From a virus, in IMG/VR virus record IMGVR_UViG_3300043788_000040, positions 1 to 64,000 of that record: a stretch of 64,000 nt of DNA. One strand, given 5' to 3'. Below are positions 17,890-33,571 of the stretch, piece by piece (the first letter of the stretch is position 1; every line of letters begins with the position of its first letter). The notes beneath the pieces were generated by a model, which made no database searches, was not told the origin of the DNA, and saw only the letters and a program-made list of their open reading frames with translations. The translations under genes and the position numbers were made by a program.

Positions 17890-17919
17890 TAGACAAACCA
17901 TGGGGTTAAGCTGTATACT
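17890..17919 (+). promoter_or_regulatory. Early-type promoter TAGACA-N18-TATACT
   Basis: One of four repeated copies (see findings). Confidence 0.6.
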
Positions 17920-29310: not shown

Positions 29311-29958
29311 ATGCCCGTTGGCGCACAGGTCAGGAAATCTGTTTACGATTCGTCCGAGGAGCTTGATCTCGTCCACAAGGCGAAGCACGGGGACGAGACC
29401 GCTTTTCGTTCGCTCTACGATGCGCACCACAGGCATGTGATCGTGACCATCACCCGGTTCGTCAAGGACGACGATGCGGCGATGGAAGCCACCAACACCG
29501 CTTTTTTCAAAGCTTGGAAAGCACTGCCGAGATTTGAGGAACAGGCGAAGTTCAGCACGTGGATAACACGCATCGCCATCAACGAAGCACGGATGCTCCT
29601 GCGCACCAACAAGAGAAGGCAGCGTGAAGTATCACTTGACACCCTGTTGTCCTACGGACCGGACGGGGAACGCTACGAGGGTTCTTCTGACGTGAGTTAT
29701 GCGCAGCGCTGGCTGGCAATCCGAGACCTAGAACTTGAAGGCATCGCCGACCGCCAGCTTCTTGAACGTGCGATTGGGAAAGTCCCGAAAAAGTTTCGTG
29801 AGATTCTCCGGCTCCGGTTTTGGGAAGGTCTGTCAGAACGTGAGATTCAGGAGAAGGTCAGTGCCAAGGAGTCCAAAGTAGTCAGCATGTCGGCTGTGAA
29901 GTCCCGCATCTTACGGGGACGCAATTTGCTCATTGAACAAGTTGAACAAATTTCATAA
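29311..29958 (+). CDS. ECF-type RNA polymerase sigma factor
   Basis: Region 2 GDETAFRSLY...FFKAW..L.RF...FSTWITRIAIN; region 4 AVKSRILRGR. Confidence 0.9.
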   Translation: MPVGAQVRKSVYDSSEELDLVHKAKHGDETAFRSLYDAHHRHVIVTITRFVKDDDAAMEATNTAFFKAWKALPRFEEQAKFSTWITRIAINEARMLLRTNKRRQREVSLDTLLSYGPDGERYEGSSDVSYAQRWLAIRDLELEGIADRQLLERAIGKVPKKFREILRLRFWEGLSEREIQEKVSAKESKVVSMSAVKSRILRGRNLLIEQVEQIS

Positions 29959-29975: not shown

Positions 29976-30317
29976 GTGTACAACAAAGAGTTTTCACCCC
30001 GACCGGGCGAACGAGAAGCTGTCATAGGCGATGTTTCTACTCCCCTGTCCTTGGGCTTCCACCTGAGGATCGCGCAGCCCCACGTGGACATGCTGAACGA
30101 GTTGCCGATGTTCCGTGACCTGACCACGGCGAAGCTTTTCACGCTGCTCCCGAAGAAGTACCACAAGTTCGTGCCGCCAATCGGCGAGGATTTGCAGATC
30201 AGGGAAGCGGCATTCCAGCGGGAAGAGCGCATGGCACGGGCGGTCATAATCGGCTTGATAGCAAAGCCGGAGCACATTGAACAGCATCAGGCGCAGAGAT
30301 TCCTAGAACGGCTGTAA
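29976..30317 (+). CDS. Hypothetical protein
   Basis: GAGGA RBS before GTG. Confidence 0.6.
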   Translation: MYNKEFSPRPGEREAVIGDVSTPLSLGFHLRIAQPHVDMLNELPMFRDLTTAKLFTLLPKKYHKFVPPIGEDLQIREAAFQREERMARAVIIGLIAKPEHIEQHQAQRFLERL

Positions 30318-30337
30318 CCGAGGGCGAAAGATTCCCC

Positions 30338-30375
30338 TTGACAACTATCATCAAAAATGAGAATATCAGGTATTA
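30338..30375 (+). promoter_or_regulatory. Putative promoter(s) of the tRNA operon
   Basis: TTGACA 30338-43 with a weak -10 GAATAT at 17 nt; phage GTATT motif at 30370-74. Confidence 0.45.
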
Positions 30376-30384
30376 GGTAGAGAC

Positions 30385-30525
30385 ATGAGCTTCCTCAACG
30401 CCAATTCGACAGCAGCCGACACCATCTTCGGACGGAACGTAGTCGCCTGCGCAGGTACGGTCGCCGCTGAAGCGGCGGCGGTGAATGAGGGAGATACCAT
30501 GTCCCTTGGAGGGTTTGGCGAGTAA
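30385..30525 (+). CDS. Leader peptide (46 aa) of the tRNA-array attenuator
   Basis: MSFLNANSTAADTIFGRNVVACAGTVAAEAAAVNEGDTMSLGGFGE*; 25/46 codons are GNN; stop lies inside the antiterminator. Confidence 0.75.
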   Translation: MSFLNANSTAADTIFGRNVVACAGTVAAEAAAVNEGDTMSLGGFGE

Positions 30526-30555
30526 CTAGAGACCAAACCAAAGATTCCAAGGGAC
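30501..30555 (+). promoter_or_regulatory. Antiterminator hairpin
   Basis: GTCCCTTGGA(30501-10)/TCCAAGGGAC(30546-55) 10 bp plus GGTTTGG/CCAAACC 7 bp; shares 30549-55 with the terminator. Confidence 0.8.
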
Positions 30556-30587
30556 GAACCGAAAGATGGTTCGTCCCTTTTGTTTTT
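30549..30587 (+). terminator. Intrinsic terminator (attenuator) just upstream of the first tRNA
   Basis: AAGGGACGAACC/GGTTCGTCCCTT 12 bp stem plus TTTTGTTTTT. Confidence 0.85.
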
Positions 30588-30589
30588 GT

Positions 30590-30666
30590 ACCCGGTTAGC
30601 TCAGTTGGTTAGAGCGCTACTCTTACAAAGTAGAGGTCGTGAGTTCGAGCCTCACACTGGGTACCA
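30590..30666 (+). tRNA. tRNA-Val(TAC)
   Basis: Cloverleaf, CTACT-CTTACAA-AGTAG, TTCGAG T-loop, CCA. Confidence 0.95.
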
Positions 30667-30675
30667 GTTTTCTGT

Positions 30676-30750
30676 GGGTCGGTAGCATAATTGGGAATGC
30701 GCCTCTCTTGCAAAGAGGAAGATGGAGTTCGAATCTCCCCGTATCCACCA
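30676..30750 (+). tRNA. tRNA-Ala(TGC), bulged acceptor stem
   Basis: CCTCT-CTTGCAA-AGAGG, G3:U70, CCA. Confidence 0.85.
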
Positions 30751-30755
30751 AATTG

Positions 30756-30833
30756 TGCCGCCCCGGACGGCAGAGCAGCCGGAGCCTTCGGGCTACGGTG
30801 TTGGAGCGCATAGGCTCCTTAAGCATCCGGGCG
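30756..30833 (+). ncRNA. Unassigned structured RNA (possible pseudoknot)
   Basis: Three hairpins including a UUCG tetraloop; loop CCCGGA complementary to downstream TCCGGG. Confidence 0.45.
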
Positions 30834-30843
30834 AAAAATTTAT

Positions 30844-30920
30844 GGAGATGTAGAGGAGAGGCCGTCCTCAGGTCCCTGTCACGGACCAAATCGTGGGTTC
30901 GAATCCCATCATCTCCGCCA
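30844..30920 (+). tRNA. tRNA-Asp(GTC)
   Basis: GGTCC-CTGTCAC-GGACC, G73, CCA. Confidence 0.93.
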
Positions 30921-30925
30921 AATTT

Positions 30926-31142
30926 GGCAAACCTGCCCCAGTAGAACGGCAGCGGTGGCTGTGCAGAAGCCGGGGACAAGTGCCGATTGCATGATCGGGG
31001 ACCAAAGCTTTTCAGCCCGCGAGTGGGGCGTGACCTCTGCAAAGGGAACGTTTCGCTGATCCTAGTGGATAACGCGGGGAAGAACCACATGAGCTTGCAG
31101 GCAAGTGTGGGAGCGAGGTGCGATCCCTCCAAGATTGTTTGT
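30926..31142 (+). ncRNA. Unassigned ~215 nt multi-hairpin RNA
   Basis: Serial hairpins and a 3' T-arm-like element between tRNAs; no credible ORF. Confidence 0.4.
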
Positions 31143-31217
31143 TGCGGCGTACCCAAGTGGTAAGGGAGAGACCTGCAAAGTCTTTATTCGGGAGTTCGAT
31201 TCTCCCCGTCGCATCCA
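31143..31217 (+). tRNA. tRNA-Cys(GCA)
   Basis: GAGAC-CTGCAAA-GTCTT, U73, CCA. Confidence 0.93.
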
Positions 31218-31218
31218 C

Positions 31219-31295
31219 GGTGGCACGGTCCAGTTGGAGTGGACGCCTCCCTGTCACGGAGGAGAACGCGGGTTCAAGTCCCGCTGTCACCGCCA
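31219..31295 (+). tRNA. tRNA-Asp(GTC)
   Basis: CCTCC-CTGTCAC-GGAGG, CCA. Confidence 0.95.
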
Positions 31296-31310
31296 AGTTT
31301 AGGAGAGACG

Positions 31311-31523
31311 GTGAGGATTCTCTACGACGAGCAGCGGCATCTAATAGCAGTGCCGTACAGCGTGGAGAATCTTCACAAGGCAGCCGAGGTGCTGGGTATT
31401 AAACGCTGCTGGTTTCACAAAGACCACTATGACATTCCAAAGCGCATGGTTGCGCGGATGCCGGAGACAGTGGCAGAAAAAGTTTCGCCGCGAGAGATAG
31501 CGAGGATTGTACGCGGCAAGTGA
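31311..31523 (+). CDS. DUF4031-like small protein
   Basis: AGGAG RBS + GTG; HL....ENLH..A..LGIKR.WF...HYDI motif. Confidence 0.65.
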   Translation: MRILYDEQRHLIAVPYSVENLHKAAEVLGIKRCWFHKDHYDIPKRMVARMPETVAEKVSPREIARIVRGK

Positions 31524-31527
31524 GTTT

Positions 31528-31603
31528 GCTACGGTCGGCAAGTTGGAAAGCTATCTGCCTGCAAAGCAGACATACGTGGGTTCGAACCCCACCCGTAGCT
31601 CCA
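31528..31603 (+). tRNA. tRNA-Cys(GCA)
   Basis: TCTGC-CTGCAAA-GCAGA, U73, CCA. Confidence 0.9.
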
Positions 31604-31607
31604 AATT

Positions 31608-31956
31608 TGTACTGAGTGGGACAATCGCCGCCGCGCAAGCGGGGGAGGAAAGTCCGGGCACCATAAGCAACCGTACCAGTTAACGGCTGGGCATCCGGGT
31701 CAGAAACGGATGACGATTAGAGGACAGTGACGAACCGATTCAGTTCGGGTGAGACGACCAATCTCTACGGGGTGCAATCTCAAATAGGCCGTGAGTCCTG
31801 CTTGGACGAACAACGTCGGCGAAAGCCGATAGCAAACGGCGGGTTGAGAGCTTGAGGCGTGCAGCGATGCACGTCCTAGACGAATGATTGTCACCGTTCT
31901 GCATCTGGCGCAAGCCGATTGGAACGGTACAGAACCCGGCTTATAAACTCAGTACA
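31608..31956 (+). ncRNA. rnpB: RNase P RNA (bacterial type A-like, compact)
   Basis: P1 TGTACTGAGT/ACTCAGTACA; GAGGAAAGTCCGGGC (31645-59); ACAGAACCCGGCTTA (31929-43); P2 GACAATC/GATTGTC. Confidence 0.92.
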
Positions 31957-31963
31957 GAGTTTC

Positions 31964-32037
31964 GCGGAACTAGCTCAATGGTAGAGTCTCGGTCTTCCAA
32001 ACCGAGGACGCGGGTTCGATTCCCGTGTTCCGCTCCA
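31964..32037 (+). tRNA. tRNA-Gly(TCC)
   Basis: TCGGT-CTTCCAA-ACCGA, U73, CCA. Confidence 0.95.
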
Positions 32038-32042
32038 AGATT

Positions 32043-32118
32043 GGGGCTGTAGCTCAGTTGGGAGAGCGCATCCATGGCATGGATGAGGTCAGGGGTTCGA
32101 CCCCCCTTAGCTCCACCA
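32043..32118 (+). tRNA. tRNA-Ala(GGC)
   Basis: CATCC-ATGGCAT-GGATG, G3:U70. Confidence 0.95.
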
Positions 32119-32130
32119 GTTTTGTAGTTC

Positions 32131-32206
32131 GGGGAAGTAGCTCATTTGGGAGAGCGCATCGTTCGCAACGATGAGGTAGCGGGTTCGACCCCCGTCTTCT
32201 CCACCA
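32131..32206 (+). tRNA. tRNA-Ala(CGC)
   Basis: CATCG-TTCGCAA-CGATG, G3:U70. Confidence 0.95.
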
Positions 32207-32219
32207 GTTTTGTAGCAGT

Positions 32220-32297
32220 GCGCTGTTAGCTCAGCCCGGAGTGAGCGCTTCCTTGACATGGAAGAGGTCAGAGGTTCAAATCCTCTACGGCGCACCA
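32220..32297 (+). tRNA. tRNA-Val(GAC)
   Basis: CTTCC-TTGACAT-GGAAG, CCA. Confidence 0.93.
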
Positions 32298-32305
32298 GAT
32301 TTTAT

Positions 32306-32347
32306 GCCGGAGGTCGGAGAGATACCGACACAAACTCTCCGGCTCCA
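32306..32347 (+). ncRNA. 42 nt tRNA-like minihelix ending UCCA
   Basis: GCCGGAG/CTCCGGC 7 bp + T + CCA, internal GTCGG/CCGAC hairpin. Confidence 0.55.
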
Positions 32348-32351
32348 GATT

Positions 32352-32426
32352 GGCCCGGTCGTCTACTGGCTAGGACATCAGCCTTTCAAGCTGGGGAAGG
32401 GGGATCGAAACCCCCTCGGGCTACCA
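32352..32426 (+). tRNA. tRNA-Glu(TTC)
   Basis: TCAGC-CTTTCAA-GCTGG, CCA. Confidence 0.92.
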
Positions 32427-32435
32427 AATTTGAGG

Positions 32436-32510
32436 GCGCGATTAGCTCAGTGGGAGAGCGCTCGCTTCACACGCGAGAGGTCGCAGGTTCAAACCCTGCA
32501 TTGCGCACCA
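32436..32510 (+). tRNA. tRNA-Val(CAC)
   Basis: CTCGC-TTCACAC-GCGAG, CCA. Confidence 0.95.
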
Positions 32511-32542
32511 GTTTTGCGGTACTATAGTAGAGAGGCTTCAAA

Positions 32543-32616
32543 GCGGAATTTGCATAATGGTAGTGCGAGACCTTGCCAAGGTCTAGGCACGGGTTCGATT
32601 CCCGTATTCCGCTCCA
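32543..32616 (+). tRNA. tRNA-Gly(GCC)
   Basis: AGACC-TTGCCAA-GGTCT, U73. Confidence 0.95.
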
Positions 32617-32631
32617 AATTTTGAGTAGTAC

Positions 32632-32705
32632 GCGGGCGTGGTTCAATGGTAGAATTGGAGCTTCCCAAGCTTCGGACGTGGGTTCGATTCCCATCGCCCG
32701 CTCCA
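32632..32705 (+). tRNA. tRNA-Gly(CCC)
   Basis: GGAGC-TTCCCAA-GCTTC, U73. Confidence 0.95.
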
Positions 32706-32719
32706 GATTAGAGGCTCTC

Positions 32720-33424
32720 TTGGAATCGCTGTACAACGTCAACGGACTGATCTTCTGGGGTGAGCGGGAGATCAACGCACGCAAGATAGTGGAGAGCCAC
32801 TTAGTTCAGGCGGTCAAGGACAGCCTGAAGAGCATGAACCGGGCGTGGGAGTTCTTCCAGGTGGAGGCTCCGATCCTGACGCCAAAGCCGTTCGTGAACC
32901 CGAACTACACGGACGAGGACTTGTTTGCGACAGGCGGCACGGCGAAGGACAGCGACGGGACGGATGTGGCGCTGATTGCCCGTCCTGAGACCACAATGGG
33001 TTCTTACGCGTGCGCGAGGTACCTGTTGAACCCGCACAACGAAACAAAGGTGCGGATGCCTCTGGTGGTCTGGCAGCATGGCAAGAGCTTCCGGCGTGAG
33101 CAAGACCAGCCGACAAAGTTCATGCGGCTGAAAGAGTTTAACCAGCTTGAGTTTCAGTGCATCTACAGTCCGACGACTGCGATGGACTACAGCTTGAAGC
33201 TGCTCGCGGATGTCGCCATCGCGCTGACGAAGTTGGTAGGCGAGACGAGGATCACGCCGAGCGATAGGCTGCCGGACTACAGCGAGTCCACGATAGACAT
33301 TGAACACGCTGAGAGCGGTATGGAGCTTTGCTCCTGCTCAAGGCGCAAGGATTTTGAAGGTGCGAAGGTTCTAGAAGTTGCGGTGGGCACCGACCGCGTT
33401 GTGAAACATTTTCTGGGCGTGTAG
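32720..33424 (+). CDS. Glycyl-tRNA synthetase-like class II aaRS catalytic core (no anticodon-binding domain)
   Basis: GAGG RBS + TTG; VEAPILTP, RPETT, motif 2 SFRRE...MRLKEFNQLEFQ, motif 3 EVAVGTDR. Confidence 0.75.
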   Translation: MESLYNVNGLIFWGEREINARKIVESHLVQAVKDSLKSMNRAWEFFQVEAPILTPKPFVNPNYTDEDLFATGGTAKDSDGTDVALIARPETTMGSYACARYLLNPHNETKVRMPLVVWQHGKSFRREQDQPTKFMRLKEFNQLEFQCIYSPTTAMDYSLKLLADVAIALTKLVGETRITPSDRLPDYSESTIDIEHAESGMELCSCSRRKDFEGAKVLEVAVGTDRVVKHFLGV

Positions 33425-33490
33425 CTCAACTGGGAGAGCGCGTGCTTTGCAAGCATGAGGTAGCAGGTTCGACCCCTGTCACGTCCACCA
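33415..33490 (+). tRNA. tRNA-Ala(TGC)
   Basis: CGTGC-TTTGCAA-GCATG, G3:U70; overlaps the aaRS-like stop codon. Confidence 0.95.
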
Positions 33491-33495
33491 ATTTT

Positions 33496-33571
33496 GGGGC
33501 TATAGTGCAGCGGCCTAGCACATCACCCTCTCACGGTGAAAACGCGGGTTCAAATCCCGCTAGCCCTACCA
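33496..33571 (+). tRNA. tRNA-Glu(CTC)
   Basis: TCACC-CTCTCAC-GGTGA, CCA. Confidence 0.95.

Follow-up and report, generated by a model that had tools for sequence, protein, structure and literature searches.

The first tRNA array of an uncultured giant phage, represented by a virus contig in IMG/VR (record IMGVR_UViG_3300043788_000040), is preceded by a cassette which is probably a ribosome-mediated (leader-peptide) transcription attenuator, and its output would be the very set of tRNAs that it tests. The cassette comprises a promoter, a short open reading frame (ORF), here called leader 1, that carries a codon for every anticodon of the array behind it, and two hairpins that compete for the same nucleotides (nt), the second being an intrinsic terminator that reaches up to the first tRNA gene. 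The window analysed is the first 64 kb (positions 1 to 64,000) of a single contig of 170,563 bp with 56% G+C; positions given below are those of the window unless the contig or another sequence is named, and all features of the cassette and of the genes it precedes lie on the plus strand.

Leader 1 and its codon content

Array 1 consists of 16 tRNA genes, for Val (three), Ala (four), Asp (two), Cys (two), Gly (three) and Glu (two), with 13 distinct anticodons between them and no other amino acid represented; its first gene, a tRNA-Val, starts at 30590. Upstream of it lies an ORF of 46 codons plus stop (30385-30525, ATG to TAA), encoding the peptide MSFLNANSTAADTIFGRNVVACAGTVAAEAAAVNEGDTMSLGGFGE, in which 25 codons are GNN and one is TGC, and in which 15 of the 16 GNN types occur, GTT being absent. 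Codons 19-37 (30439-30495) form a putative regulatory patch where 17 of 19 codons are GNN or TGC. An earlier reading of this sequence (the original prediction) had described the ORF and its patch in the same terms, and was right in all particulars, as it was in claiming a cognate codon for each of the 13 anticodons encoded downstream.

The codon match was compared with several backgrounds. Leader 1 has 26 of 45 codons (58%) cognate to its own array, compared with 36% in the long ORFs of the contig, and for random in-frame coding segments the joint probability of this count and of cover for 13/13 anticodons is P = 1.8e-4. Amongst 747 small ORFs starting with ATG (20-60 codons, both strands, whole contig), leader 1 alone reaches both values. 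The presence of at least 15 GNN types among 25 GNN codons has P = 0.028.

A consensus-like promoter (30338-30366) stands at the head of the cassette, with a -35 element TTGACA at 30338-30343, a 17-nt spacer, TG at 30358-59 and a -10 element GAATAT at 30361-66. A second -10-like element, TATTAG (30371-76), is in register with the -10 elements of relatives, and a start from it would give a nearly leaderless mRNA. Promoters are found at the equivalent place in all leader-1 homologues. The ATG of leader 1 lies 9-19 nt downstream of the candidate -10 elements, and the AGGU and GAGA elements upstream of it resemble those of the phage's other genes; that the leader is translated is something we infer rather than observe directly.

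Two mutually exclusive hairpins

The 3' end of leader 1 enters a long hairpin, the putative antiterminator (30501-30555; -26.1 kcal/mol), which has an outer helix of 10 bp with arms GTCCCTTGGA (30501-30510) and TCCAAGGGAC (30546-30555) and an inner helix of 7 bp with arms GGTTTGG (30512-30518) and CCAAACC (30533-30539), the TAA stop codon (30523-25) lying inside its loop. The intrinsic terminator (30549-30589; -20.5 kcal/mol) has a 12-bp stem with arms AAGGGACGAACC (30549-30560) and GGTTCGTCCCTT (30568-30579) around the loop GAAAGAU, followed by TTTTGTTTTTGT, the terminator scan counting 13 pairs; its U tract (30578-30589; UUUUGUUUUUGU after the stem) runs to the base before tRNA-Val. As AAGGGAC (30549-30555) is common to the two hairpins, their helices are mutually exclusive, and the 10+7 bp hairpin sharing this heptamer with a 12-bp terminator and U tract in front of the first tRNA is thus as originally proposed.

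Since the U tract extends as far as tRNA-Val, no promoter could fit between terminator and first gene, and no sigma-70-like promoter was found inside array 1; therefore at least the first tRNAs should be transcribed through the terminator, as had been predicted, and not from separate promoters of their own. A further hairpin, GUCGCCGC-UGAA-GCGGCGGC, is present within the ORF (codons 26-32, 30460-30479) in the minimum free energy fold, and its motif GTCGCCGC-NGNN-GCGGCG is kept in 7/8 homologues; situated inside the codon patch, it may serve as an RNA polymerase pause or synchronising element until the ribosome arrives.

The effect of ribosome position was followed in a co-transcriptional model, in which the RNA under a 30-nt ribosome footprint, and all sequence upstream of that, was masked for each A-site codon and the remainder was folded as far as the terminator loop, the 3' arm of the terminator being not yet made. 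In this model the 5' arm of the terminator is sequestered at 0.6-0.85 with the A site at codons 1-34 and at 0-0.4 once it has moved to codon 36 or beyond, up to the stop; the antiterminator forms for A-site codons 1-34 and the switch falls between codons 34 and 37. The codon patch lies just upstream of the point where the ribosome begins to block the antiterminator and ends at the switch boundary. An equivalent switch, approximately 12 codons before the stop, is predicted by the same model in 8/8 homologues and in the leaders of the contig's other two arrays (leaders 2 and 3).

Homologues of leader 1 in related phages

DNA and protein searches of cultured phages revealed no close relative, the DNA matches being confined to tRNA stretches and the best protein identities being at most 32% for the sigma factor encoded upstream of the cassette and at most 58% for the ribonucleotide reductase, and therefore the comparative set was drawn from IMG/VR contigs. 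A search of viral contigs with the sigma factor gave one near-identical strain, with a single leader substitution (TTC to CTC) in a non-cognate codon, which is uninformative. The PolA gene adjoining array 3, used as query, retrieved 13 IMG/VR loci with PolA 47-74% identical, some on contigs of up to 463 kb; in the phages that carry a leader-1 homologue PolA is 54-62% identical where the PolA locus was recovered. Four more contigs were retrieved with a DNA pattern derived from the conserved in-ORF hairpin, adding three new leaders (two of the contigs are identical there), and the 463-kb relative was fetched as a complete genome.

Eight distinct leader-1 homologues from diverged giant-phage contigs were compared. 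In 4/5 large relatives an RNase P RNA lies within a Val/Ala/Asp/Cys/Gly/Glu array with a leader-1 homologue in front. The homologues are 35-48 codons long and their frame stays open through the changes in length, 56-67% of their codons being GNN or TGY and hence cognate, and the other two frames carry stops with the exception of one frame of one homologue. Both the ATG and the TAA are invariant, the latter within an antiterminator loop that is otherwise variable. The peptide alignment has six invariant columns, one of which is Cys, and in the middle of the peptide the sequence and length vary and the class of codon does not.

The hairpins are conserved likewise, with antiterminators of -21 to -27 kcal/mol and terminators of -16 to -20.5 kcal/mol in 8/8 homologues. 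In MAFFT alignments, whether of the whole leader or of its 3' part, the antiterminator of this contig was placed one base out of register; helix pairs were hence counted in each sequence from the closing pair, and RNAalifold was run on the separate helices. In the outer helix of the antiterminator nine pairs are canonical in all eight, with changes on both sides at five of them, whilst the inner helix has been rebuilt, for example GGUUUGG/CCAAACC compared with GAUUUCG/CGAAAUC. The terminator hairpin and U tract are kept in 8/8, four of nine pairs having changes on both sides, and the upper stem covaries. The short ORFs with matching codon sets before homologous arrays, and the compensatory changes in both hairpins, which the original prediction proposed to look for in related phages are therefore both found. 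The case that it named as contrary, a peptide kept and the codon diversity or hairpins lost, is contradicted, since it is the middle of the peptide that varies and the Cys codon, the TAA and the hairpins that are kept.

In two of the relatives the sequence immediately before the leader-1 promoter resembles a T arm, GGGTTTTGACTCCC in one (L027:6940-6985) and GGGTTCAACTCC in the other (L028:6250-6300), with ACCGGGCAGCTTC coming after it in both; these may be tRNA-like genes missed by ARAGORN.

Leaders of the other tRNA arrays

The contig encodes 31 tRNAs in three arrays that are sorted by amino acid, and upstream of both array 2 and array 3 there is a cassette of equivalent layout with a sequence unrelated to that of leader 1. 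Leader 2 (contig 68324-68398; 24 codons, MTNLTLSLTLYSLLSGLHGGVFIG) follows a TTGACA-17-TATTCT promoter and is itself followed by a canonical terminator; as with leader 1, its mRNA may be nearly leaderless. Its codons CTT, CTA, CTG, TTG and TAT account for 5/5 anticodons of the array, those of tRNA-Leu GAG, UAG, CAG and CAA and of tRNA-Tyr GUA (P = 1.1e-3). Leader 3 (contig 74877-74951; 24 codons, MNTMRPFSGFRPYTPPSVRGVASL) follows TTGACA-17-TACTAT, and with CCA, CCG, CCC, ATG, TTT and TTC it too covers 5/5 anticodons of its array, which holds Pro UGG/CGG/GGG, Met and Phe (P = 3.5e-3). Each of the three leaders matches the other two arrays poorly, and among the 747 small ORFs it is again only the array's own leader that reaches the values of array 2. 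Several of the relatives retrieved with PolA keep the Pro/Met/Phe array together with a homologous leader, such as MNTMRPTPMFRPCTPTVRGGEVL.

In the complete 463-kb relative there are 68 tRNAs, grouped by amino acid into six arrays, and besides homologues of leaders 1-3 there are two further leaders. One of these, MNRISSLSSSSSSFGGFGERVRWRGW, precedes an array of four tRNA-Ser and tRNA-Leu(UAA) and contains TCC, TCA, TCG, TCT, AGT and AGC with TTA as its single Leu codon; the other, which begins MTSMKHNTVARKQWRNRRHD, precedes a Trp/His/Arg/Asn/Gln/Lys array, and in it each of the codons CGA, CGG, CGT and CGC occurs a single time, in line with four Arg tRNAs. Tested against the background for their own arrays, codon count and anticodon cover being taken jointly, the five leaders of this phage give P = 7e-4 to 6e-3. 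The highest raw cognate count is for the leader's own array in 4/5, the Tyr/Leu leader tying with the far commoner GNN class. In this contig and the relative together, four non-homologous leader families beyond leader 1 match their own arrays.

The distribution of TTA, which makes up 2% of Leu codons, is more specific. Amongst six Tyr/Leu leaders it occurs only in the one whose array has tRNA-Leu(UAA) (L066:6910-6987), and it occurs in none of the five other Leu leaders, whose arrays are without this tRNA; in the 463-kb phage tRNA-Leu(UAA) is in the Ser array and TTA is in the Ser leader. Because TTA follows tRNA-Leu(UAA) between arrays, the pattern argues for matching at the level of the single isoacceptor.

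Two observations on these arrays stand apart. In two relatives (L008:4240-4275 and L016:3205-3241) the first tRNA-Pro supplies, with its 5' acceptor strand, the 3' arm of the hairpin after the Pro/Met/Phe leader, and there is no U tract, so that this cassette may work somewhat differently, perhaps by control of tRNA folding or processing rather than of termination. The 463-kb relative also encodes three tRNAs with a CUA anticodon (G001 contig 238747-239065, minus strand, loci L050/L051), which are amber suppressors and are called Pyl by ARAGORN; they have a promoter-like element of their own and no leader, and hint at recoding of TAG in this phage group.

Proposed mechanism and alternative explanations

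In the attenuator that we propose, transcription would begin at the TTGACA promoter and a ribosome would translate the 46-codon leader close behind RNA polymerase. Were the Val, Ala, Gly, Glu, Asp and Cys codons all decoded fast, the ribosome would come to the last dozen codons or the TAA, where it would cover the 5' arm of the antiterminator (30501-30518) and allow the terminator (30549-30579 and U tract) to fold, and transcription would stop directly before tRNA-Val. Were any cognate aminoacyl-tRNA scarce, the ribosome would stall at or before codon 34, the antiterminator would form first and hold AAGGGAC, and the polymerase would go on to transcribe the 16 tRNA genes, along with the RNase P RNA and a gene resembling an aminoacyl-tRNA synthetase. 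The new tRNAs would relieve the stall, closing a negative feedback loop. The other two arrays of the contig and those of the related phages would be gated likewise by their own leaders, and gating per array would explain the grouping of the phage's tRNA genes by amino acid.

A number of results weigh against this proposal. The Shine-Dalgarno sequence of leader 1 is weak (AGGU), and the transcription start and ribosome binding site are themselves predictions. The share of cognate codons beyond the switch point (7/12) matches that ahead of it (19/33), and the GNN richness is partly forced by the G-rich helix arms. The antiterminator shares just 7/12 nt of the terminator arm, and in the equilibrium fold of the complete leader the terminator has P of ~0.8-0.9 for stalls at codons 9-30. 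The original prediction had suggested folding the leader with the ribosome masked; the switch it expected appears in the co-transcriptional model, whereas the equilibrium fold favours the terminator at most stall positions, and therefore the switch must be kinetic and co-transcriptional if it operates, as control is in classic attenuators. No protector (1:2) hairpin is predicted in leader 1, the hairpin at 30460-30479 not pairing with the antiterminator arm, and with no ribosome present the antiterminator is predicted at 0.72; an untranslated leader 1 should therefore read through, unlike those of trp and his. Other arrays fit less well: the hairpin after leader 3 is without a good U tract, two relatives have a tRNA-Gln inside their Pro/Met/Phe arrays and no Gln codon in the leader, a tRNA-Phe in the GNN array of one relative is not specifically reflected in its leader, and no leader was seen up to 380 nt from any sub-block of the minus-strand Thr/Ile/Gln/Lys/suppressor array in the 463-kb relative.

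What the proposed attenuator would respond to can be suggested only tentatively. The leaders may be both a counter-defence alarm and the organising principle of the tRNA complement, each array being a regulon with one codon per isoacceptor, so that the loss of any one host tRNA, whether through anticodon nucleases (the trigger suggested in the original prediction), phage-induced decay of host RNA or codon demand, would cause a stall and deploy the replacement tRNAs with the RNase P RNA that their maturation requires; the leader would then be a direct feedback sensor, tRNA by tRNA. This is a possibility that we take seriously and nonetheless hold to be somewhat doubtful. The switch could also be unchanged and its signal be a general one, such as translation capacity, amino-acid starvation (uncharged tRNA) or whether ribosomes follow the polymerase, the arrays then answering global translation stress or the timing of infection. 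The antiterminator is the fold predicted for a leader without ribosomes, so that the array would be turned on whenever translation was blocked; missing and uncharged tRNAs would stall a ribosome alike, and the conserved N-terminal third of leader 1 is occupied by Asn, Thr and Ser codons, which are non-cognate. A sensor of that kind needs no roster, yet each leader covers every anticodon of its own array and few of those of others, the Cys codon is invariant and TTA moves between arrays with its tRNA; moreover more tRNA does not cure amino-acid starvation. A general signal would seem unlikely.

Two further explanations dispense with the attenuator. It is very unlikely that the ORF is a micro-gene in its own right, one that ends at its own terminator and yields a small peptide with a function, and that the tRNAs arise from constitutive leakage through this terminator or from unrecognised phage promoters. 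Such promoters are possible given that the phage encodes a sigma factor just upstream, and parts of the peptide are indeed conserved (MN..., GTVAA, D.V/MSS), but its conserved C-terminal residues are encoded in the antiterminator arm and GTVAA in the conserved hairpin, so that the RNA explains both. The middle of the peptide is constant in codon class alone, chance would have to account for five unrelated peptides that each reflect the array behind them, and the U tract leaves no space in which a promoter could lie. Alternative hairpins would in themselves suffice for a riboswitch-like element, and the fold of the leader is far more stable than those of shuffled sequences (z = -4.25), so that leader 1 might be a non-translated RNA switch set by a trans-acting factor (a T-box-like tRNA contact, an RNA-binding protein or a small molecule) in which the ORF is incidental; we consider this extremely improbable. 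Were the ORF incidental, its ATG and TAA would not stay invariant, nor would its frame remain open at lengths of 35-48 codons in eight homologues with the other frames mostly closed. No T-box specifier loop or T-box motif is present at leader 1, and Rfam gave no T-box, riboswitch or leader-family (Trp, His, Leu, Thr or Phe) match either at gathering thresholds or, on 30300-30600, at E up to 10, the best matches there being small RNA and microRNA models at chance level (E of at least 2.6). A T-box or known Rfam leader was accordingly rejected for want of an Rfam match, and an independent micro-gene or incidental ORF was rejected on frame conservation and the array-specific codon match.

Comparison with known attenuators

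Leader-peptide attenuation is known from amino-acid biosynthesis genes and a few synthetase genes. The mechanism proposed here is thus a known one, and what would be new is its use on tRNA genes; the original prediction knew of no description of this for phage tRNA arrays, and a full-text literature search likewise found none of leader-peptide control of tRNA genes. In enterobacteria the leaders of ilvGMEDA (Ile/Leu/Val) and thr (Thr/Ile) contain codons for several amino acids, a stall at any of which favours the antiterminator over the terminator before the structural genes, and the phage leaders would work in the same multivalent manner. They differ in output, which is tRNAs and RNase P RNA rather than biosynthetic enzymes, and in composition, leader 1 having roughly one codon per isoacceptor (13 anticodons, 6 amino acids) and not runs of one codon.

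As in trp and his, the antiterminator has one segment in common with the terminator, and its 5' segment is overlapped by the end of the ORF with the stop codon. The end of the terminator lies 54 nt after the stop codon of leader 1, and the spacing in the trp leader is similar. The geometry originally assigned to leader 1, that of trp/his/ilv-type attenuators, therefore stands for the overlap of the two hairpins and the stop codon within the antiterminator and does not stand for the full four-segment form, there being no protector. Superattenuation is hence not predicted for leader 1 when translation is lacking, unlike in trp and his, although the protector defines that subtype and not the class as a whole; leader 3 does have a predicted hairpin of the 1:2 type.

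In pheM-pheST of E. coli a leader with Phe codons controls phenylalanyl-tRNA synthetase, and so there too an attenuator governs a component of translation that serves the codons of the leader itself. It senses one amino acid and makes a synthetase, whereas the phage cassette would sense many isoacceptors and its product would be the tRNA genes, making the feedback direct. The T-box, where the supply of a specific tRNA also decides between terminator and antiterminator before translation-related genes, binds the uncharged tRNA directly and needs no ribosome; here the ribosome would be the reader. Leaders 1 and 2, which may be nearly leaderless, can also be compared with the cysteine-responsive polycysteine ORFs of mycobacteria, which are very short, leaderless or nearly so, and are described in a preprint as codon-specific attenuators at the 5' end of operons; those sense one amino acid and control downstream protein genes (bioRxiv 10.1101/834739).

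Why phages carry tRNA genes, and by what means these are expressed, has been under debate for decades, the suggestions including codon compensation, substitution for host tRNAs that have been degraded, and evasion of anticodon nucleases (PMC10264068). If the attenuators operate as proposed, phage tRNAs would be made on demand with feedback from the speed of decoding, the amino-acid-specific sorting of giant-phage tRNA genes would be explained and a classic mechanism would be extended to RNA genes. Each leader also predicts which tRNA depletion should switch on which array, and the leaders would offer synthetic biology small, naturally occurring sensors with multiple inputs for tRNA supply.

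Putatively regulated genes and genomic context

The genes that the cassette would regulate (30590-33571) are the 16 tRNA genes, an RNase P RNA and an ORF with a core like that of GlyRS/HisRS, in keeping with the cargo first suggested from the sequence. The RNase P RNA (31609-31959; 181 bits) is complete, of class A and embedded in the tRNA array, and one adjoining tRNA genes was present in 5/5 large relatives searched (139-255 bits); none was found in five smaller relatives, whose contigs are fragments. No description of a phage-encoded RNase P RNA was found in a literature search. The gene originally called synthetase-like (32573-33424) has a weak similarity to the class II catalytic core of GlyRS/HisRS (E = 2e-10, far below family cut-offs) and looks like a truncated synthetase-like protein. 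It comes just after two tRNA-Gly genes, and since its listed TTG start overlaps tRNAs the true start is probably later.

The neighbouring genes are phage-like and include a B12-type ribonucleotide reductase (phrog_367), an ECF-type sigma factor, a DnaB-like helicase and a tail fibre. The sigma factor gene (29311-29958, plus strand; Sigma70_r2 and r4) lies directly upstream of leader 1 and is followed by an ORF of 113 amino acids without a family match; the phage may therefore be able to redirect the host polymerase, and some of its promoters are perhaps not of the sigma-70 type.

Elsewhere in the contig the Pro/Met/Phe array encloses an ORF whose product has RF-1 and PCRF domains (E = 1e-32; L001:13007-13615, contig 77007-77615), and at L004:2567-2900 (contig 126567-126900) a fourth promoter, TTGACA-17-TATTCT, stands before structured non-coding sequence that includes a tRNA-like T arm, GGGGTTCGACCCCCC. 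Finally, a promoter-like sequence T(A/G)GACA-N18-TATACT recurs on the plus strand at window positions 17890, 28315 and 45788 and at contig positions 71073 and 124950; CT always stands before its -10, it differs from the TTGACA-N17 promoters of the tRNA arrays and it may represent a second class of promoter.

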